Positions 2,487 to 58,176 of a stretch of 64,000 nt of DNA are shown in pieces. Source of the DNA: a virus; IMG/VR virus record IMGVR_UViG_3300045988_119718, positions 188,611 to 252,610 of that record; one strand, given 5' to 3'. Positions within the stretch are counted from its first letter, which is position 1; each line of letters begins with the position of its first letter. Under the pieces are notes generated by a model, which worked only from the letters and a program-made list of their open reading frames with translations, made no database searches and had not been told where the DNA came from. The position numbers and the translations under genes were made by a program.

Positions 2487-5400
2487 TTAATCATGAAGAT
2501 TATCTACATTAGTAAGGTTATTCCACTTTATACCAAGTTTTTCCTTACACTGTCTAGATAATTCCATAAGTACTTTGTTCAATGAACCACTACTAATGAT
2601 AGAAGCTGTCATACGAGCATTAACCGATGCTGAAGTTAATAAAGCATCTATTGGTTCATCAGGTCTAAAATCAGTATATGGTTCTTTACCTTTAGGCATA
2701 ATATCTTTTACTACACCTTTGATTGCAGTGTTGTAAGTCAGCTTATCACCAACGCCCATCTTATCTTCACACTTGATGTAGAAGCAGAACATTACACCTT
2801 TTTCCAAGTTCTTGAATTTGCCTTCTGGTAATAACTTTTCTGTAGAAGGTACTGATTCATTAATTTCTATATCTGTTACTCCGTTATCTTTAAGATATTT
2901 CTTTTCTTTCTTTATAGAATTTTCATACTTAGAAACTATCTTCTTTAATGATGGAGATAATTCATCTAATTCACAAGTTCTAAATATTTTAATATCTTGA
3001 AGAGTACCAGTAATCTTAGAATGAACTTGAATTCTACCAAAGTCTGTAGCTAATTCTAATTCATCATCAGAAATATTCTTCATTAAAGTATTAGCTTCAT
3101 CATCAGTAAATGCATTCTGGAAGATTATTAATGGAGAACCTTCTTCTATAGGTTTACCTTTTTCAGCTAAGAAGAATACATTAGAACCAGCATCTAAAGA
3201 ACATGTTTTTTCTACACAATAGAATGAAGTAAGAGCATCTGAAATACGTTCATCTATAATAGAAGAATCTTCATATGCTTCATCTGTACACATTATAGCT
3301 ATTTTAGCCATAGTACCAATGTTAAATGCAACGTTTTTATTATCAGCGTTATGCCCTATAGAGGGACTGAACGAAGTTGGGTCATATGCTAAGATATCAT
3401 TATACTTTAAGGTTTGACCTTTCTTTACAAAAGGTTTAAGTTTAACTGTTACATAGAAACCACCATCAGAGTTCTTCTGTGTTTTCTCTCTTAAATCTAC
3501 AGAATGCTTGGATTTATTACCGTCTTTATCTACTTCTTCAAAGATAATAAAGTCATCAGTAATATTTAAAACTTTTCCTTTTACTCCTTTAAATTTATAA
3601 GAAAAAATATTAGAAGTAAAGTAAGGTAATGCCTCATCCATGCCATAAGTAATAAAATTCGGAGATGAAGATTTAACTCTCATAATATGCTTAGTAGTCT
3701 GAATATAGCCCATTGCAGTACGAATTGGGTCATCATGTGTAGTAGCATAAGGAGCCATAGCTTCATAAACAGACATACCATTCAATGTATTCAATTTAGA
3801 TTTATCATTACTTACTTTAAGTATACCTCTGCCATCAGCTATGGAAGAATTAATAGTAGCCTGTCTAGTAATACCTACATTACCAGCAAACCCAGTAGAC
3901 ATAGATAAGATACCTAACATGGAATCGTCATATACACGTTTATCTAATGTATAAGCTCTATCAGCATTCATACCAGATAAGCCTTTGAATGAGTATGTAT
4001 TAATAGCTTCAGCTTCTAATAATGGAGAAGATACCGAAAGATCAGATATACCAGGGTCTTTCATAACTGCATCTATAAGAGCAGACTGTTTAATGGTAAA
4101 CTTAACTCCTCTACCAGTTCTCTTCGATTTATTAGCATATTGACCATATGCATTAGCAATAGCTTGATATAAATAACCAGCTAATATTTCATTAGAACGT
4201 AATCTATTACCAGAGATATCTGCATGCTTATTATAAGAAGTAGAAGCTAATAAGCTACTAGCATAAGCTAATGCTTCTATATAATCGTATGGAATATCGT
4301 ACTTCTTGCAAATATCAATAGTCATAGGATCAAATTCGCAATCATAGAAGTTATCAAAACCATCAGCTTTAATTCTACCACCAAATTCATCTAAGATATC
4401 TAACCACATATTTTTTGTGTTGATATCTTTAATAGAGAATCTAGATAAATCAGTTTTAGCTAATCCTGCCATTAATAATGAATCTTCTGGCTTCTCATCA
4501 TTATAAACTAAATATCCATCACTAAATCTAATTACAGATTCTGTTTCAGTTACCTTAGGTCTAGTATCAGAGAATCTGTATTTAATCTTAGCTTTATCCA
4601 TAGACTTCTGTAAACCTTCAGAAAAAGCCATAAGAATAATAACTGGAATTTTAGTATTCATGATAGATGCTTGAGAGTAAGAAAGTTTATTAGATGGTTT
4701 AGCTAAAGCATAAGTTTCTGCAAATACTTTATCTTTAGAAGCTAAGAATTTACCAATAGTATAAGCTGCATTTTCTTTATTAGAATAGATAGCTTTTTTA
4801 GTTTTACTATCATACCCAATTAAGATATCAGTTTTTTCATTAAATTTTTTATCTACAGGAAGTTTCTTTAATGCATCATAGTCAAAAGCTATATAACTTC
4901 CATCAGCTGTAGTAATTTTAGAGTATAAAGCACCTAAGTCTTTAAATTCTATCGGCATATCATACTTGGAAAGAATAAAAGTATTATCACCGATATAAAC
5001 TTTAACTTTAGAATCTGTGTCTTTTAAGTTCTTTAAAGCTTTAGTAAGTTTAGATACACCTTTAGTAGACTTAGTACCACCAGAAGGATTAACTCTTGAA
5101 ATAAATATTTTATGATAAGAGGTAACTATCTGAGTTGTATCCTCTTCTGTTTTAATTATAGGAAGTAAAAGAATCTGTCCAGCTATAGTTTTAGTATTTC
5201 CTCTTAATTTCATAAATCTATGATTTATAAATTTAGGAATATCTATAGCTATATTTGATCTAGTACCATTAATATCTTCTAATTGTACTCTTAAAGTATA
5301 AATATAATCTTCATTAGTAGATTCATCTGTCATTTCCATACTAGCAACACATAATGGCCTAGACTTATTTCTAAGAGATTTAAATATAGCAATAATATCT

Positions 5401-50886: not shown

Positions 50887-52590
50887 ATGGAAGATAGAAA
50901 TATTGCACCAAATACTTCTACTAAAAAAGAAAAAATATCTTTATCAGATATTGTTAGAGCTAAGGGTGTAGTAAAACCTCTTAGTGAACAAAACCTTGAT
51001 AACGTAACTAGAAGTGATGTTAAGGTTAAACAAGTAGAAGACCCAGCTATGAAAACTAGAGATGAATATCTCAAAAAGATTGATGATGGGTTTGATAGAG
51101 TAAAGAAGTCAATATATGAAGAACGTATTAAACCGTATATTGATGAACAGAAGCAAATAGCTGAAGAAAAAGAATTCGATGGAGAAATTGATGTTGCTAG
51201 TTTAGCAGATATTGCTGCATATAAAGCTCAGCATAAAGAAGCTAATAAACAACAAAAAGTTTCGATAGAGAATTTGCCAAAAGAAGAAGCACTTTCTACT
51301 ACTAACGAAGTAAAAGAAGAACCCAAATCTTCTACCCCAGATTTCTTAGATAAACCAATTAGCGAAATCGATTTTGATGAAAATGATTTCAACTATGATC
51401 TTATTTCTGATGAAGAAGATACATCTGATGAAGAATTAGATGAAGATGCTAATGATGAAAAGTTAGAAGATGAAGAAGATACTGAAGCTAAAGAAGTTGA
51501 ACAGAGAGAAAAAGAAAAAGAAGAACTTAGACAGAAAAGTGAAATTGTTAAACAGTTTATTACACCAGAATCTATAGATTTATCTGGATTTACAGAATCT
51601 AGCAAAACTATTAATATTAATACTGCTATTAATCATATTAGTGAAGTAGATCCTAAGTTTACTGAATCTAAATCAGTAGTATTATATAATACTGGTAAAA
51701 CTATTTCATTTACTCCTCTTACTGGTTCTGAAATTGTAGCTCTTTCTTCTGATAACTTTAGCTCTGAATTAGAACTGTATAAGAAATCATTCTATACTAT
51801 GTATACTCATGATGTATCTCCAGATAAACCAAAGAGCTTTATTGCATGGGCTAAAAGTATTGATGCTGGTGATTTAAATCAGTTATTCTTTGGTTTATAT
51901 AATGCTACATTTGGTGATTCTAACTATATCGGTTATCAATGCCCAAAATGTAATGCATTCTTTATGAAAAAATACTCAATCGATAAGATGTGGGATTTTG
52001 CTAAGGATGCTATAAAAGAACAGAAAGAAAGATATACTTTTATTAAAGAACATGGTGAATCAGAAGAGAACTTTAAATCTAAAATCAAAAGATACAATCT
52101 CTCCAAAGATTATATAATTCAGCTTAAACCAAGATCAATTTATAATTTGCTTGAATTAGATTATCTCGATAATGATTTTAAACGTAAATATAGTTCTATT
52201 GTACAAGCTATAGGATATATTGATAAAGTATTCTTTGTAGATTATTTGCACCATCAGCTTACACCAGTAGATTTTAAAGTAGATAGAGATTCTATCGTTA
52301 AAACTATTAAGAATAAATGTATTGTCCTTTATAAAGTATTATCTTCCATTACACCAGATAATTACTCTTTGTATAGTGGTATGATTTATAATTATTATAT
52401 TGAAGAAGCTAAATGCTTATCATTAATTAATTATCATATCCCAGCTACAGATTGCAATGAAAAAATTAAAGAAGGTGCTAATAAAGGTATGCTGTGCAAT
52501 GAGCATATCAAAGAATTAGAAATTAGCCCTTATAATATGCTTTTTACACGGCATCAGTTGGTAATGCAGAGCACCTTACACGTCGATTAA
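50887..52590 (+). CDS. Hypothetical protein with an acidic middle region, 567 aa.
   Basis: ORF with SD AAGGAGG. Confidence 0.6.
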   Translation: MEDRNIAPNTSTKKEKISLSDIVRAKGVVKPLSEQNLDNVTRSDVKVKQVEDPAMKTRDEYLKKIDDGFDRVKKSIYEERIKPYIDEQKQIAEEKEFDGEIDVASLADIAAYKAQHKEANKQQKVSIENLPKEEALSTTNEVKEEPKSSTPDFLDKPISEIDFDENDFNYDLISDEEDTSDEELDEDANDEKLEDEEDTEAKEVEQREKEKEELRQKSEIVKQFITPESIDLSGFTESSKTININTAINHISEVDPKFTESKSVVLYNTGKTISFTPLTGSEIVALSSDNFSSELELYKKSFYTMYTHDVSPDKPKSFIAWAKSIDAGDLNQLFFGLYNATFGDSNYIGYQCPKCNAFFMKKYSIDKMWDFAKDAIKEQKERYTFIKEHGESEENFKSKIKRYNLSKDYIIQLKPRSIYNLLELDYLDNDFKRKYSSIVQAIGYIDKVFFVDYLHHQLTPVDFKVDRDSIVKTIKNKCIVLYKVLSSITPDNYSLYSGMIYNYYIEEAKCLSLINYHIPATDCNEKIKEGANKGMLCNEHIKELEISPYNMLFTRHQLVMQSTLHVD

Positions 52591-52595
52591 TTGCT

Positions 52596-52886
52596 TTGCA
52601 GAATGCCTTTAGAAGAGGGTTTGATTTAATCGCCGCTAAAGACCAACCAATGGGATTTATTCATACTTTATACTATTATCAAGTAGAAAAATCCATAGAA
52701 GATGCTAAAAAAGAGGAAATGCGAATTGCTAAAGAAAAACAACAGCAAGCTGTAAATGCCAGATTAAATAGAAGGCAACAATTAATGGGTCGAAGACCTG
52801 TTAATAATTCTCCTGCTGTTAATGATTCTTATAGTGATTCTGCAAATATCGACGCTGAAGACTTAGAAGATGCTTTCGGTATATAA
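52596..52886 (+). CDS. Small hypothetical protein (weak TTG start; the frame is open from 52536).
   Basis: ORF with no convincing SD. Confidence 0.3.
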   Translation: MQNAFRRGFDLIAAKDQPMGFIHTLYYYQVEKSIEDAKKEEMRIAKEKQQQAVNARLNRRQQLMGRRPVNNSPAVNDSYSDSANIDAEDLEDAFGI

Positions 52887-52961
52887 TCCTAATATAAATT
52901 TTTGGAGGAATTGAAATTGACTTTAATTCAATTTGCTGAGAAAATAAATGTTAGGAGTAAT

Positions 52962-53243
52962 ATGAGTATATTTTGTAATCACTTTGAAGAGATTATAGTT
53001 CTATATAAAGTATTATCATACTATATAGATATCTATAATCTCTCAGTGGTTATAAGCACCAAACAATTATCCAATAATACAGTTAATCTTAAAGCTAATA
53101 TTTCTTGTACTAATATAGAAGTATTGAAAGAATTAATAGAAAGATTCAATAATAGTTCTTTTATTATATTTGAAAGAAATCTTAAATGTAAGATAAACTT
53201 ATTAAAGAATAATACTATAAATATCATTATTACTAAAAGATAG
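52962..53243 (+). CDS. Small hypothetical protein (start ambiguous: ATG 52962 behind TAGGAG, or TTG 52902).
   Basis: ORF only. Confidence 0.3.
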   Translation: MSIFCNHFEEIIVLYKVLSYYIDIYNLSVVISTKQLSNNTVNLKANISCTNIEVLKELIERFNNSSFIIFERNLKCKINLLKNNTINIIITKR

Positions 53244-53329
53244 AGTCTATATAGGCTCTATCTCTATTTTAGTTATTTAGGGATAACTATGACATTATTA
53301 TAATTTATAAGAAAAGGAGGTAATTAAAG

Positions 53330-54865
53330 TTGGCTGAACAAAAAGACTTCTTATCTATTAATCCTTTAGATATAGAAAAGTTTATTAAGGTTAATGAGCT
53401 TAAAGAAGTTACAAATCCTATATTCTTTTCTGCTAATAATGTACCTACATCAGATGGGTTATTATCCAATGAAATATTTGGTATTACAATGAATTCACGC
53501 TCTAATGTATTTGCATATATTAATCTAGGGGGTAAATACTTTATACACCCTATGATATATGCAATATGGAAGAAAGTAGACCGTAATATAGTGAAGTGCG
53601 TTCACTCTGTTTCTAATTTTAGATTATCTAATGAAGGCTATTTGGAAGAAAACGAAGACGGAGAAACAGGTATAGATTTCTTAAGAAAGAATATATCTAA
53701 AATCCATTTTAAACAATCAGATTCTTTCGTAAGAAAAGCTAATATAGCTTTCTTAGAGAAATTTAAAAATATTATGTTTATAAAGAACTATATAGTTATT
53801 CCAGCTTACTATAGAGATGTATCTACGGATGGAGGCAAAGTAGGTGTAGGCGATATAAACAAATTATATCAATACTTACTTATGGCTTGTAATTCTTTAA
53901 AAGAAATGGATCAATTAGGTATTACTACTTATGATGCTACTGTAGGAAGAATACAAGATTTATTATTAGAGATATATAGTTATTTTACTAAAGGTGAAGT
54001 ACAAGGTAAAACTACAGGTGCTGGTATAGCGGGTAAATTTGGTATATTACAGCATGGTGTGCAATCTAAGACAACAGACTATTCATCTAGATTAGTCATC
54101 TCTGCTCCTAATTTAAAAGTAGAAAGTATGGATGACTTACTTACTGATGTAGATCATGTAGCTTTACCATTAGCATCTGCTATTACCAATTTCTATCCTT
54201 TTGTATTAGCATATGTAAGACAGTTCTTTATGAATGAGTATAATAATAACCCTATAAGAAATGTATACTCTTCATCTACTAATACTAAAGAATTTAAAAA
54301 AGTAAAACTTAAAGATTATAGAATCAGTTTCTCTGATGATGTATTGAAAGAAGAAATAGATAGATTTATTCATGGTATTGCAAATAGATTTAGGCCTATA
54401 GAATTACCTACAGAAGATCCAAAATATCCTGTGGTATATATTAACTTTAAAGGTAGACATGCTACAGAAGAAGAAGTTACTAACGATTTAGAAAAAGAAG
54501 ATGATAATAGAGTACCTATTACTGAAAGAGTAATGACATGGTGTGATTTATTATACATGGCAGCTATAGAAGTAACAGCTGATAAAATGGTATTGATAAC
54601 AAGATATCCTATTGATAGTTGTTATAACCAATTCCCATGTGGTATTAATGTATCTTCTACAATTAAGACTGAACCTATGGTAATTAACCATAAGCTGTAT
54701 AAACATTATCCATATATTAGAACTGAAGATATTGGTAAGAATACTACTAATAAATTCATAGATACTTTAAACATCAGTAATGTTTATTTAGGTTCTATAG
54801 GTGGAGATTATAGAAAACCCATTGTAATCTCGTTAATCAACCTACTAAACTGCGGGGAACTCTTT
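53330..54865 (+). CDS. Multisubunit RNA polymerase beta-prime subunit, N-terminal part, exon 1 (up to ..NLLNCGELF). The track ORF continues to a stop at 54892 inside the intron.
   Basis: GKFGILQHGVQSKTTDYSSRLVISAPNLKV matches beta-prime [28 protein letters not shown]. IPAYYRDVSTDGGKVGVGDINKLYQYLLMACNSL matches [47 protein letters not shown]. Confidence 0.6.
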
Positions 54866-55724
54866 AAAAACCTAATAACCAAGCTATTATAGTAATATAA
54901 TAGTGGCGATTAGTAACGGAATCGGTATGGTAAAATCATTAGGTATTTAGACAATCAAACGCAACCAAGCTTCCATTCTAATTACTAGTATGGAAGAAGG
55001 CTCATCGACTATCGAACAGCAATTATTAAATTAATTGAACTTAGTAGAGTAGGGTTAATAACTGGCCCGAAAGAGTAGGCTATTATAAATTGCCATACAA
55101 TATTATAAAATACTTATTGGAGGATTTTATAATATGATAAAAATTTTAAATATTTTAGATATAAAACCAAATATGTACTCTATAAATGAAAACGGTATAG
55201 TTAAAAATATTAGAAGAAATAAAATATTATCAACACAATTATTCGTAAACGGGTATTTTACTGTTCATTTACAAACTACAACTAACGGAAGGCATTCATA
55301 TTACATCCATCAACTAGTAGCATATGCATTTTTACCCAAACCCAATTCAAAGGTAATAGTAAATCATAAAGATTTAAATAAGCAGAATAATAATGTAGAT
55401 AATTTAGAGTGGACTACTTATTCTATAAATAATAAATGGGAAAATAGAAATAATAATCCGCCTATTATAAAAACCAGAGGGTTGTGGAGTAAAGGCGAAA
55501 CTACATGTGGTGAAAATAATGGAATGCATATATATTCAAACGAAACGATAGAGTTGATTTGTAAAGCATTAGAAAAAGGGCTTAACTATACCGATACTTT
55601 AAAATATGCTAAATTACCTATAACAAATAACAATAGATATTTAGTTAGTCATATAAATAGAGGAAGTAGATGGAAATGTATATCTAAAAAATATAAATTG
55701 GCATATAATAGATAATATAGTCAG
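54866..55724 (+). mobile_element. Group I-like intron (about 859 nt) interrupting the RNAP beta-prime gene and carrying an HNH homing-endonuclease ORF. P7 is formed by GACUAU (55007-55012) and AUAGUC (55717-55722). Boundaries are approximate to within a few nt.
   Basis: Exon 1 ends in U, the intron ends in G (55724), and S-like AAUAUAGUC and R-like GACUA elements are present. Exon 2 starts exactly at the codon boundary encoding NSTDLDGDQ. Confidence 0.55.
55134..55715 (+). CDS. HNH homing endonuclease (I-HmuI/NUMOD-like), 193 aa, intron-encoded.
   Basis: NGYFTVHL...GRHSYYIHQLVAYAFLPKPNSKVIVNHKDLNKQNNNVDNLEW matches the HNH_3 pattern. SD GGAGG. Confidence 0.65.
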   Translation: MIKILNILDIKPNMYSINENGIVKNIRRNKILSTQLFVNGYFTVHLQTTTNGRHSYYIHQLVAYAFLPKPNSKVIVNHKDLNKQNNNVDNLEWTTYSINNKWENRNNNPPIIKTRGLWSKGETTCGENNGMHIYSNETIELICKALEKGLNYTDTLKYAKLPITNNNRYLVSHINRGSRWKCISKKYKLAYNR

Positions 55725-55946
55725 AATTCAACTGATTTGGATGGTGATCAGGTTACAGTTAAATCTGTATATTCTATAGAGGCTAATAATGAACTTAGAA
55801 ATCAATTAAATTCTAAGAGACATTTTATAGCTTTAGGTGGTAATAATATAATGGAAACTACTAATGAAGGTGTAGCTGCATTATACGCACTTACTATGAA
55901 TCCTACTTCTGAAAAAGAAGGAATATATACAGACCCAATATTTTAA
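55725..55946 (+). CDS. RNAP beta-prime N-terminal subunit, exon 2 (NSTDLDGDQVTVKSVYSIEANNELRNQLNSKRHFIALGGNNIMETTNEGVAALYALTMNP...). It contains the catalytic Asp triad.
   Basis: Aligns with [57 protein letters not shown]. The track starts it at TTG 55737, which would delete the first Asp. Confidence 0.55.
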   Translation, partial: NSTDLDGDQVTVKSVYSIEANNELRNQLNSKRHFIALGGNNIMETTNEGVAALYALTMNPTSEKEGIYTDPIF

Positions 55947-55970
55947 TTAGTATATAAGTATATACAAATT

Positions 55971-55994
55971 GGTAATAGGCATATGCCTATTACC
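55971..55994. terminator. Perfect 24-bp palindrome GGTAATAGGCATATGCCTATTACC followed by a T-rich tract.
   Basis: Lies just after the beta-prime exon-2 stop and is likely a terminator or operator. Confidence 0.45.
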
Positions 55995-56025
55995 AATTAT
56001 ATTTTATTATAAAGGAGGAGTAATT

Positions 56026-56817
56026 ATGATATCAGCATTTTCTAATGAAGTAAGAGATCTAATATATAAATTAGATTCTATTCCAAGAAAACAGGATTTA
56101 TTAATTTCATCTATTGGCACTGATAGTTTAGTAAAGAGAATTGACACCAGTATTGAGCAGGCTATTGCTAATAAACCAAGTCGGTTGAGAAAAGTACATT
56201 ATGACTTGTTTAAAGGTGACTTTGTACCAGTTATAGCTTTTTCTAGTAAAAAAAAGCTTGTATATGTTTTGTATTATAAAGATAAGACTTATTCACCTTC
56301 CGATACAATTTTTGATAATACATCTGATTCAGATATAGTACTTAGTACTTTAATAAGTAATAGTTGCCCTGTAAAAATAATTGATAAAAATACAGGTAAA
56401 AGTAATGTTAAAAATAAAACTGTATATATAATCACTTCAGAGTATGCTAGGTATTTATCAGAGAAAGATTCATATCAGTATTACCCAGCTTTTATCCAAT
56501 ATATTTATACTCTTCTTAGAGATCATATTTTGTATGGTAAAAAACAGTACGGAATACCATATCTCTTTTTTGGGACTCTTCCAAATGGTAGAGTTTATGA
56601 AGAAAGAATTATAGAAGATAAATACTCGCACTTTTCAGTTCGTGTTTATATGTATTATTATCTTGCTATAGTTTATCATTTATATTGTAAATATGCTAAT
56701 GATATTGATGATTTACCGTTACAAAGATTCTATAGTTCTATAAAAGAAATGAAACTATACGATTCATATGAAGATTTTGTAGAAGAGAATAAGAAACTTA
56801 AAGAAATATTAAATTAA
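56026..56817 (+). CDS. Hypothetical protein (about 263 aa). Start revised to ATG 56026.
   Basis: SD AAAGGAGGAG lies before ATG 56026. The track start 55969 sits inside the palindrome. Confidence 0.5.
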   Translation: MISAFSNEVRDLIYKLDSIPRKQDLLISSIGTDSLVKRIDTSIEQAIANKPSRLRKVHYDLFKGDFVPVIAFSSKKKLVYVLYYKDKTYSPSDTIFDNTSDSDIVLSTLISNSCPVKIIDKNTGKSNVKNKTVYIITSEYARYLSEKDSYQYYPAFIQYIYTLLRDHILYGKKQYGIPYLFFGTLPNGRVYEERIIEDKYSHFSVRVYMYYYLAIVYHLYCKYANDIDDLPLQRFYSSIKEMKLYDSYEDFVEENKKLKEILN

Positions 56818-57043
56818 AAATAATTACACAAGTAACTACATAGTATGAATAAAAAATATTATTTTTTAAAATAGTATGTACTATTTAGTAAGTATATATG
56901 TTTAGGCTCATACAGCAATATTATTATAACCACTATAAGAAGAATTGGTAATTCTATCTAAACGAGCCTAGTAAAAATGTTAGACTGTAACAGCAACTCT
57001 TTATAAATATGAATAGGAAACTTCGTATAAACAATCTAGATTT

Positions 57044-57118
57044 GGTCCTATAGTTCAACGGTTAGAACGCATGCCTTATAAGCGTGTCATGAAGTTTCGA
57101 CTACTTCTAGGACCACCA
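57044..57118 (+). tRNA. tRNA-Ile (anticodon UAU) with encoded CCA.
   Basis: Manual cloverleaf: acceptor GGTCCTA/TAGGACC, anticodon arm CATGC-CTTATAA-GCGTG, T-loop TTCGACT. Confidence 0.6.
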
Positions 57119-57138: not shown

Positions 57139-57226
57139 GGATGTATGGCCGAGTGGTTTAAGGCACCAGTCTTGAAAACTGGCATAGAGAAATCTATCTG
57201 GGGTTCAAATCCCTATGCATCCGCCA
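57139..57226 (+). tRNA. tRNA-Ser (anticodon UGA), long variable arm, with CCA.
   Basis: Acceptor GGATGTA/TGCATCC, anticodon arm CCAGT-CTTGAAA-ACTGG, discriminator G. Confidence 0.65.
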
Positions 57227-57233
57227 TTTTTAT

Positions 57234-57309
57234 TCCTGAATAGCTCAGTCGGTAGAGCGTGTGACTGTTAATCACAATGTCGTAGGTTCGATCCCTACTT
57301 CAGGAGCCA
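57234..57309 (+). tRNA. tRNA-Asn (anticodon GUU) with CCA.
   Basis: Acceptor TCCTGAA/TTCAGGA, D-arm AGCTCAGTCGGTAGAGC, anticodon loop CTGTTAA, T-loop TTCGATC. Confidence 0.7.
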
Positions 57310-57310
57310 T

Positions 57311-57385
57311 CGGGGAATAGTACAAAGGTCAGTATGCTTGGCTTTGACCCAAGAGATTTGAGTTCGATTCTCAATTCCCCTGCCA
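57311..57385 (+). tRNA. tRNA-Gln (anticodon UUG) with CCA. There is a 1-72 mismatch.
   Basis: Anticodon arm CTTGG-CTTTGAC-CCAAG, T-arm TTGAG-TTCGATT-CTCAA, discriminator G. Confidence 0.55.
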
Positions 57386-57661: not shown

Positions 57662-58083
57662 TGGCCGATTGATGAAATTGGAAAACATAAGAGACTTGAT
57701 TTCAAAAACAAAAAATTATATTGGGATATATCGTAAGATTATTCTCAAGAATTTTAATGGAAGAAAATTTAGGTTATCCATTAAAGCCTGATGAAGATGC
57801 TCATTATAAGTATCATTATCAGGTAACATGAGCAGAATAGAAGAGATTCTATTGCTGAATGCGAGCTAAACGGTGAATCCTTTCCTAATGGTAACGCCGT
57901 GCCAATCAATAATAGAAAAGTTATTGAGTGCGTAGAGACTGTACACTCGCTGTCCTAACTATTTATAGAAGGATGAAGACACAGTCCAGACCACAAACTA
58001 TATCTATAGGTAGTGAAAACTATAGTGGTAGGAAAATCTCTCGGTAGTTATACCTTCTGGGTTCGAGTCCCAGATCGGCCACC
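57662..58083 (+). tRNA. tRNA-Leu (anticodon UAA) interrupted between anticodon positions 34 and 35 by a group I intron. Exon 1 is 57662..57696, the intron is 57697..58031 and exon 2 is 58032..58083 including CCA.
   Basis: Acceptor GGCCGAT/ATCGGCC, discriminator A, D-loop AAATTGGAAAA, anticodon loop CTT|AAAA with stems AGAGA/TCTCT, long variable arm CGGTAGTTATACC, T-arm CTGGG-TTCGAGT-CCCAG. Confidence 0.65.
57697..58031 (+). mobile_element. Group I intron (about 335 nt, no ORF) within tRNA-Leu(UAA). R-like element GCGUAGAGACUGUA (about 57929-57942) and S-like AAGACACAGUCC (about 57976-57987). The terminal G is at 58031.
   Basis: The core resembles the cyanobacterial/plastid tRNA-Leu intron: GUGCAGAGACUCG ... 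AAGAGAGAGUCC. Confidence 0.6.
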
Positions 58084-58176
58084 AATTAATCACTTCATTA
58101 TTTTCTCCTTTTAATTATGTATCTATAGACTGATAGCAGTCTATAGATACATATACTCTTTAGAGGTGTTGATATT

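Follow-up and report, generated by a model that had tools for sequence, protein, structure and literature searches.

A tRNA-Leu(UAA) gene of a jumbo phage interrupted by a group I intron with the remains of an HNH endonuclease gene

Can a transfer RNA (tRNA) gene that lies in two pieces on a phage genome still yield a working tRNA? The question is raised by a locus in a 64,000-nt stretch of viral DNA (IMG/VR record IMGVR_UViG_3300045988_119718, positions 188,611 to 252,610; hereafter the window). An earlier reading of the letters alone, without database searches (the sequence-only reading), had found two halves of a tRNA-Leu(UAA) gene 335 nt apart and proposed that a group I intron separates them between U34 and A35. 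We put the probability at about 0.88 that this is a functional tRNA-Leu(UAA) gene of a jumbo phage, interrupted at U34/A35 by a group I intron of a bacterial tRNA lineage, with the endonuclease decayed and the ribozyme intact. All coordinates are positions in the window, and features are listed on the + strand.

The split tRNA-Leu(UAA) gene and the fold of its intron

Run in intron mode (-i), ARAGORN called a tRNA-Leu(taa) gene with an intron at 57663-58084. The gene proposed earlier is thus real, with its coordinates shifted by one base from those first given (57662-58083). The intron occupies 57698-58032 (335 nt) and is inserted as gaCTT^g…g^AAAAt, where ^ marks a splice site.

57663..57697, +: 5' exon of tRNA-Leu(UAA), comprising the acceptor 5' strand, D arm, AGAGA and loop bases C32 U33 U34 (ARAGORN -i; aligns with six sister alleles)
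57698..58032, +: group I intron, IC3-like, 335 nt, between U34 and A35, first and last base G (ARAGORN -i, Rfam, covariance model R1, threading)
58033..58084, +: 3' exon of tRNA-Leu(UAA), comprising A35-A38, UCUCU, variable arm, T arm, acceptor 3' strand and A73 (ARAGORN -i, allele alignment)
58082-58084, +: encoded CCA of tRNA-Leu(UAA)

Every tRNA element named in the sequence-only reading is present. The acceptor stem (GGCCGAT/ATCGGCC), D-loop (AAATTGGAAAA), anticodon stem (AGAGA/TCTCT) and loop (CTT^AAAA), variable arm (CGGTAGTTATACCTT) and T-arm (CTGGG-TTCGAGT-CCCAG) form a type II cloverleaf with a long variable arm, a UAA anticodon, discriminator A73 and an encoded CCA. The spliced sequence alone, 87 nt long as predicted for the mature tRNA, was also called tRNA-Leu(taa) by ARAGORN. 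The split gene was missed by default ARAGORN and by the Rfam tRNA model, which reported only the four tRNAs upstream of it.

On sequence grounds, the intervening segment is a group I intron. That proposal was borne out by a P1-P9 fold, by covariation within a family of related introns, by a match to the family's covariance model and by three allele states at one site. The R (GCGUAGAGACUGUA, 57930-57943) and S (AAGACACAGUCC, 57976-57987) elements it had pointed to are in place, and the intron ends in G (58032). This omega G shares an alignment column with the last G of the DnaB-gene introns of Crassvirales.

The family was collected through a 22-mer of the window's own P9 domain (GGTAGTGAAAACTATAGTGGTA), so an independent covariance model was built without the window or the 22-mer. 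This model, R1, comprises 32 other members, tRNA-borne and from viral contigs, and covers the P3-P8/P7 core upstream of the 22-mer. R1 matched the window at full length at 57855-57997 (77.2 bits, E 1.9e-13), its sole match in 64 kb. It found nothing in an intron-less sister allele (contig L213).

The P1-P9 model was defined on a compact family member (L003) rather than on the window, and was mapped onto a 33-sequence alignment. Standard pairs fill 94.2% of family cells, compared with 33-43% when the 3' partners are slid. Pairs changed on both sides number 30 of 51 in the family model (14-24 in slid controls), and the covariation score is 0.418 (0.05-0.12 in slid controls). None of 500 shuffles reached the observed pairing or covariation score. 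MAFFT misaligned P3 of the window by one column, so the window was given a threading of its own. By this threading, each of the twelve helices of the window intron is paired throughout.

57695..57698, +: P1 5' strand, exon C32 U33 U34 and intron G1 (threading)
57829..57832, +: internal guide sequence (P1 3' strand), U132 G133 A134 G135 (threading; position homologous to family UUUGAGU/UUGAGC)
57837..57852, +: P2 hairpin AUAGAA-GAGA-UUCUAU with GNRA loop (threading; 6 of 6 family pairs changed on both sides)
57861..57865, +: P3 5' strand GCGAG, pairs with CUCGC 57946-57950 (threading)
57870..57931, +: P4-P6 domain (threading, covariation, whole-precursor minimum-free-energy fold)
57870-57875/57895-57900, +: P4
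57879-57880/57890-57891, +: P5
57901-57902/57930-57931, +: P6
57906-57913/57920-57927, +: P6a
57935..57941, +: P7 5' strand G(A)GACUG, bulged A 57936, within the R element (pairs with CAGUCC 57982-57987 in the S element)
57946..57950, +: P3 3' strand CUCGC, pseudoknotted with P7 (threading)
57951..57975, +: P8 hairpin, 57951-57956/57970-57975 (threading, covariation)
57976..57987, +: J8/7 and P7 3' strand, S element AAGACACAGUCC (threading)
57990..58032, +: P9 domain, three-way, with the 22-mer GGTAGTGAAAACTATAGTGGTA, then AGG to omega G 58032 (threading)
57990-57994/58025-58029, +: P9
57998-58009, +: P9a
58010-58023, +: P9b, GAAA loop

P1 consists of C32-G135, U33-A134, U34•G133 and G1•U132, and the U34 (57697)•G133 (57830) pair is the wobble of the 5' splice site. 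By position, the guide is homologous to the GAGU/GAGC of 32 relatives; four compact relatives carry GAGC. Against the family's CCCGUC/GGCGGG, P3 shows full compensation, with both-sided changes at all six family P3 pairs. P7, presumably the guanosine-binding helix, is 100% paired in the family, with four compensated pairs. It is also compensated against the Crassvirales DnaB introns (GACUG/CAGUC here; GACUA/UAGUC and GGCCA/UGGUC there). A-rich J4/5 (AAU) and J5/4 (UAA), GNRA loops L2 and L9b, and the terminal G335 complete the fold. The intron fits an IC3-like subgroup by its architecture, lacking P2.1, P5abc and P7.1/7.2 and having a J7/3 of 4 nt, and by the literature label, as classical bacterial tRNA introns are assigned to IC3 (10.1101/2020.01.27.920355).

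Sister alleles, the endonuclease remnant and the wider lineage

A search with the tRNA 3' half found sister loci in a 231-kb viral contig (L123) and in six metagenome contigs (L211-L216). All of them except the short partial L214 share an Ile-Ser-Asn-Gln-Leu tRNA cluster, in which the Asn position is disrupted in L123. The tRNA-Leu gene occurs in three states.

L213 (227 kb): intron-less allele, 86-nt gene …GGGACTT AAAATCCC…, junction CTT^AAAA
L123 (651 nt), L212 (649 nt) and partial L214: intron with an HNH open reading frame (ORF)
Window, L211, L215 and L216: endonuclease-deleted intron, 330-337 nt

This series is the one expected if a homing intron invades, becomes fixed and then loses its endonuclease to decay. 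By alignment, it fixes the exon junction independently of the fold prediction. The junction in L213 is exactly the predicted one; the two halves are therefore not unrelated fragments. Together with the ARAGORN -i call, it upholds the placing of the insertion at U34/A35 of a type II tRNA-Leu(UAA) within a phage tRNA cluster.

The ORF of L123 begins 9 nt into the intron, extends into the ribozyme core and passes the Pfam HNH_3 threshold (27.6 versus 24.8 bits). In pairwise alignment, the window intron corresponds to the L123 intron after deletions of about 72 and about 240 nt and loss of the ATG.

57699..57828, +: L1 insertion, a wrecked HNH homing-endonuclease gene (aligned pairwise with the 651-nt L123 intron)

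Within this wreck, which makes up about 130 nt of the intron and had been overlooked in the sequence-only reading, endonuclease residues 33-59 survive as 27 codons at 57727-57807 (78% identity; tblastn of the L123 protein). An intact HNH ORF is absent from the window intron, the start codon being lost and the HH…N…H region deleted. From about intron position 114 on, the window and L123 ribozymes are nearly identical. Their few differences keep or improve pairing (G1•U132 versus G1-C132; U216•G223 versus C-G).

The exons tell a similar story. Nearly all differences among the seven mature tRNAs are substitutions at both partners of a pair; they fall in the D stem (AUG/CAU, GCG/CGC, ACG/CGU), in the anticodon stem (AGAGA/UCUCU, AGGGU/ACCCU, AGGGA/UCCCU) and in the variable arm. 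By analogy, the compensatory changes in the anticodon stem would fit the Anabaena intron, whose splicing, going by the title of a paper cited in PMC3984707, requires exon pairing in that stem.

A tblastn search with the L123 endonuclease found no relative among bacterial tRNA-intron loci and only a weak 32% match, in viral contig L042. In L212 (240-802, minus strand), the ORF aligns with the L123 protein as two overlapping segments read in different frames (residues 1-51 and 38-188), which suggests a frameshift and early decay of the endonuclease.

L123 also carries an HNH_3 ORF elsewhere in its cluster. At 2860-3417, corresponding to the window's tRNA-Asn (57234-57309), a 5' tRNA fragment reaching to the D-loop is followed by the ORF (2914-3363, 45 bits) and by a 3' fragment that starts near the anticodon; at this site neither the D-stem 3' strand nor the anticodon-stem 5' strand could be found. 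The window and five sister contigs keep an intact tRNA-Asn(GUU). The tRNA-Asn of L123 looks to have been destroyed by a free-standing endonuclease gene. A second intron of the same family was rejected here, the site having neither a ribozyme-like flank nor an Rfam or R1 match, and a 'tRNA-Stop(tta) with intron' call by ARAGORN at this site is probably spurious.

Beyond the sister loci, exact copies of the P9 22-mer are present in at least 120 viral contigs of IMG/VR. Among the viral matches listed, at least 104 of 125 copies sit in split tRNA genes according to intron-aware ARAGORN. These are mostly tRNA-Leu(UAA) genes split at CUU^AAAA, and the others include Arg-UCU, Met-CAU and Asn-GUU. Their introns mostly measure 180-215 nt (some 340-750 nt), and the intron end implied by homology coincides with the ARAGORN exon boundary in 82 of the 104 tRNA genes. 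The 22-mer is also present in 87 bacterial genome contigs from many phyla, with 68 of 81 copies in split tRNA genes. Ten bacterial tRNA-Leu(UAA) introns at CTT^AAAA contain it, including those of Leptolyngbya (L135, L152), Flavobacterium and Paludibacteraceae. By these matches, the window intron belongs to a widespread bacterial tRNA-intron family, described by Williams (10.1101/2020.01.27.920355) and in PMC13011429. The link drawn earlier to the cyanobacterial tRNA-Leu site was thus sound, as the same lineage occupies that site in Leptolyngbya and other bacteria. The accompanying remark that such an intron is unusual in a phage-borne tRNA gene agrees with the literature searched but not with the sequence data.

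Several IMG/VR loci (L053-L056, L067, L089, L097, L105 and L117) carry the same intron in tRNAs whose extra arm is very long and whose 3' exon starts with CAAAACC…. ARAGORN assigns these tRNAs to SeC(tca) or Ala, and they could be intron-containing suppressor or selenocysteine-like tRNAs.

Expected function and competing readings

In the reading that we favor, an HNH homing endonuclease whose gene lay in the P1 loop would once have spread the intron between related phages by cutting intron-less tRNA-Leu alleles. Here its gene would have decayed to the remnant of about 130 nt, with the ribozyme kept intact. The tRNA cluster would be transcribed as a single precursor, in which the intron would fold into P1-P9. 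An external guanosine would attack after U34, at the site marked by the U34•G133 wobble. The terminal G335 would then move into the P7 guanosine site, and the 5' exon, by then free, would attack after G335. Joining CUU to AAAA would give the 87-nt tRNA with its encoded CCA, decoding UUA/UUG. In 13 long ORFs, TTA accounts for 64.5% of Leu codons (46.6 per 1000), so the interrupted tRNA would decode the dominant leucine codon. The sequence-only reading went further and held that the phage must rely on self-splicing for this tRNA. That conclusion would apply to the phage's own copy; the host presumably carries a tRNA-Leu(UAA) of its own.

Several points weigh against a functional gene. Splicing, like transcription and endonuclease activity, is something we infer from the anatomy of the gene, its fold, its homology and its alleles. 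P1 is minimal, with three exon pairs, one intron pair and an A·C mismatch at -4, where most relatives have four and three. Within the L1 remnant, GCUCAU (57799-57804) is a perfect complement of the guide AUGAGC (57828-57833) and might act as a competitor of P1. Helices P5 and P6 have 2 bp each, with a C·U mismatch at the position of the relatives' third P6 pair. The Rfam Intron_gpI search proposed in the sequence-only reading turned out below threshold, scoring 30.9 bits on a 551-nt region (match at 57793-58009; local E 4.7e-6) against a gathering score of 50, and a scan of the whole window at the gathering threshold returned nothing for this model. Lastly, the survey of tRNA-Leu(UAA) copies was confined to the window within the larger phage genome. 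As regards the Rfam score, the generic model also gave no group I match in L123 (E<=0.01) or in 52000-57100, which indicates that it is insensitive to this intron family. The RF00028 seed holds no bacterial sequences, and tRNA introns have been mined at 18-20 bits (10.1101/2020.01.27.920355).

These weaknesses could mean that the intron is a real group I relic which no longer splices, that the tRNA-Leu copy is a pseudogene and that the phage uses the host tRNA. The short mismatched P1, the 6-nt guide complement, the weakened P5 and P6 and the low Rfam score would all suit a relic, and the apparent destruction of tRNA-Asn in L123 would imply that tRNA loss is tolerated in this lineage. We nevertheless consider a relic quite unlikely. 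Every helix is intact, and the core has stayed nearly identical to that of the endonuclease-bearing copy through differences that preserve pairing. Four independent contigs retain the deleted form, compensatory substitutions persist in the exons under constraints that the intron-less allele shares, and the GAGC guide recurs in the four compact relatives. Alternatively, the weak P1 and large L1 might need chaperoning, such that splicing would proceed only with the help of a host or phage RNA chaperone or a maturase. Some group I introns do need protein cofactors, and loss of the intron ORF might then matter. No HNH endonuclease is known to act as a maturase, however, and most of the family consists of compact relatives without an ORF. 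Self-splicing in vitro is documented for bacterial tRNA introns at this site (PMC13011429), and we regard a strict need for protein as very unlikely here.

The silence of default tRNA finders, and of Rfam at its gathering threshold, might even suggest that the halves came together by chance or through faulty assembly and that there is no intron at all. The probability of this is close to negligible given the E value of the family covariance model (1.9e-13), the same arrangement in six independently assembled contigs, the intron-less allele with the exact junction and hundreds of homologous split tRNA genes. At the other extreme, group I introns of phage tRNAs may be not only widespread and overlooked but also selected for a role of their own, a suggestion that we find doubtful. 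Their endonucleases might home on conserved anticodon-arm DNA and so cause marker exclusion of entire tRNA clusters when jumbo phages co-infect; GTP-dependent splicing might act as a gate that times the appearance of the phage's main Leu decoder; or the intron might shield the anticodon loop from host anticodon nucleases until the tRNA matures.

Other pairings for the splice-site region were also considered. Two alternative P1 helices were rejected because the family alignment shows the positionally homologous GAGC guide. One used AGGUU at intron positions 74-78 (U-A at the splice site), which lies inside the endonuclease remnant; the other used GAGA of the P2 loop (a 7-bp P1 in L123), which is part of a conserved GNRA hairpin. 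The Rfam alignment took the pairing of GCUCAU with the guide as its first helix, and the counterpart GUUCAC in L123 pairs less well.

Phage setting and comparison with known introns

The tRNA-Leu(UAA) gene is the last of its Ile-Ser-Asn-Gln-Leu cluster. The four upstream tRNAs score 58-72 bits with the Rfam tRNA model.

57044-57118, +: tRNA-Ile(UAU) (ARAGORN; Rfam tRNA)
57139-57226, +: tRNA-Ser(UGA) (ARAGORN; Rfam tRNA)
57234-57309, +: tRNA-Asn(GUU) (ARAGORN; Rfam tRNA)
57311-57385, +: tRNA-Gln(UUG) (ARAGORN; Rfam tRNA)
58116..58153, +: 17-bp hairpin followed by a T-rich tail, putative terminator of the tRNA operon (consensus scan)

The consensus scan found one terminator-like site at 58116-58153, with 0.6 expected, and we offer only as a suggestion that this hairpin ends the operon.

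The window has about 28% GC. Its RNA polymerase subunit is closest (30-33% amino-acid identity) to its counterparts in jumbo phages of Listeria (LPJP1), Staphylococcus (S6/Madawaska) and Bacillus (AR9/PBS1-like), which makes the phage a distant member of the jumbo phages with a multisubunit RNA polymerase and not a crAss-like phage. A crAss-like origin had been considered, as the first DNA matches were Crassvirales DnaB introns, and was rejected on this RNA polymerase affinity and on the 227-231-kb size of sister contigs. Megablast of 14 kb found no match among deposited phages.

The RNA polymerase beta'-like gene is itself interrupted in its catalytic motif, with exon 1 ending …LGSIGGDY and exon 2 resuming DGDQVTVK…. 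In the window the insert spans 54808-55760 (about 950 nt) and holds an HNH_3 ORF (55134-55715, 38 bits). The same interruption in L123 (about 1076-1397) is about 320 nt long and lacks an ORF. The insert gave no match to Rfam (E<=0.01) or to the tRNA-intron family model and is probably an intron of another family.

The mechanism proposed for tRNA-Leu(UAA) is ordinary group I biology at a textbook site and adds nothing new on that count. Its interest lies elsewhere. Default ARAGORN, Rfam tRNA and thresholded Rfam Intron_gpI miss the gene, which implies that phage tRNA repertoires are under-counted; the tRNA missed here decodes the phage's most used leucine codon. One group I lineage turns up often in the tRNA genes of phages, a cultured jumbo phage among them, and yet is barely described. 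The sister series (empty site, intron with endonuclease, intron with decayed endonuclease) offers natural material on homing and on competition between jumbo phages.

The closest known counterpart is the cyanobacterial tRNA-Leu(UAA) intron. Both are inserted between U34 and A35 (CUU^…G^AAAA) with a U-1•G wobble and a terminal G, both have a compact IC3-type core without P2.1, P5abc and P7.1/7.2, and the Leptolyngbya introns (L135, L152) share the window's P9 22-mer. The window copy differs in residing in a jumbo phage, in the HNH remnant in L1 and in its shorter P1. The classical cyanobacterial Leu introns are not known to carry an ORF. The Azoarcus tRNA-Ile (IC3) intron probably has core motifs (among them CAAAUUCGGNGAA, CCGAGCCAAG, GUGUAGAGACUAGACGG and CCUAAGG) and GNRA loops in common with the window intron, and differs in its tRNA, insertion site and P9 and in having no ORF.

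HNH endonucleases are encoded by tRNA-Leu(UAA) group I introns of Bacteroidota (PMC13011429). These share the tRNA, the site and the endonuclease superfamily with the window copy, which has only the non-coding remnant. Long Leu(UAA) introns of the window's lineage (684-752 nt) also occur in Paludibacteraceae, Succinivibrionaceae and Armatimonadota contigs. Splicing at this site has published precedent in bacteria (10.1101/2020.01.27.920355, PMC13011429).

In blastn against deposited phages, only the last 60-70 nt of the window intron matched, with 82-86% identity to the 3' ends of Crassvirales DnaB introns; over the 3' 60 nt, identity to phage introns in protein genes is 82-89%. The Crassvirales DnaB introns with GIY-YIG endonucleases (OQ198718, MT774387; R1 58 and 50 bits) and the capsid-gene intron of Pelagibacter phage HTVC120P (R1 124 bits) belong to the same ribozyme lineage. 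They differ in splitting protein-coding genes, which passes for the rule among phage introns (PMC3984707), and in the type and position of their endonucleases. In HTVC120P (MH598807, L220 591-719), the capsid gene is annotated as two coding sequences, gp29 and gp30. By homology, the sequence between them is a group I intron of this lineage, not annotated as such, inside a structural gene of a podophage.

Other phage tRNA genes are split by this lineage as well. In the cultured Agrobacterium jumbo phage Atu_ph07 (MF403008, 490 kb), a group I intron of 278 nt splits an unannotated tRNA-Leu(UAA) at CUU^AAAA; in the 735-kb phage LR756501, a likewise unannotated tRNA-Leu(UAA) is split at the same site by a 205-nt intron. 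An annotated 286-nt tRNA-Arg of Microcoleus phage My-WqHQDG contains a 213-nt intron. These phages are unrelated, and their introns are compact (205-278 nt) and without ORFs. The split gene of Atu_ph07 lies at L217 563-924 (MF403008 about 112890-113251), partly overlain by a GenBank 'hypothetical protein' coding sequence. In the literature searched, we found no paper on the tRNA introns of these three phages and none on a group I intron in a phage tRNA gene.

According to a 2014 review, the phage introns then known were all in protein-coding genes (PMC3984707). Devoto et al. (2019) reported introns in tRNAs of Lak megaphages, the first in any phage tRNA as far as those authors knew, and labelled them 'enigmatic' (PMC6784885), an account that later papers repeat. 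Like the intron described here, the Lak introns lie in phage tRNA genes and are present in some genomes and absent from others. They differ in that they were left unclassified in that study (PMC6784885) and that some seem to encode a tRNA.

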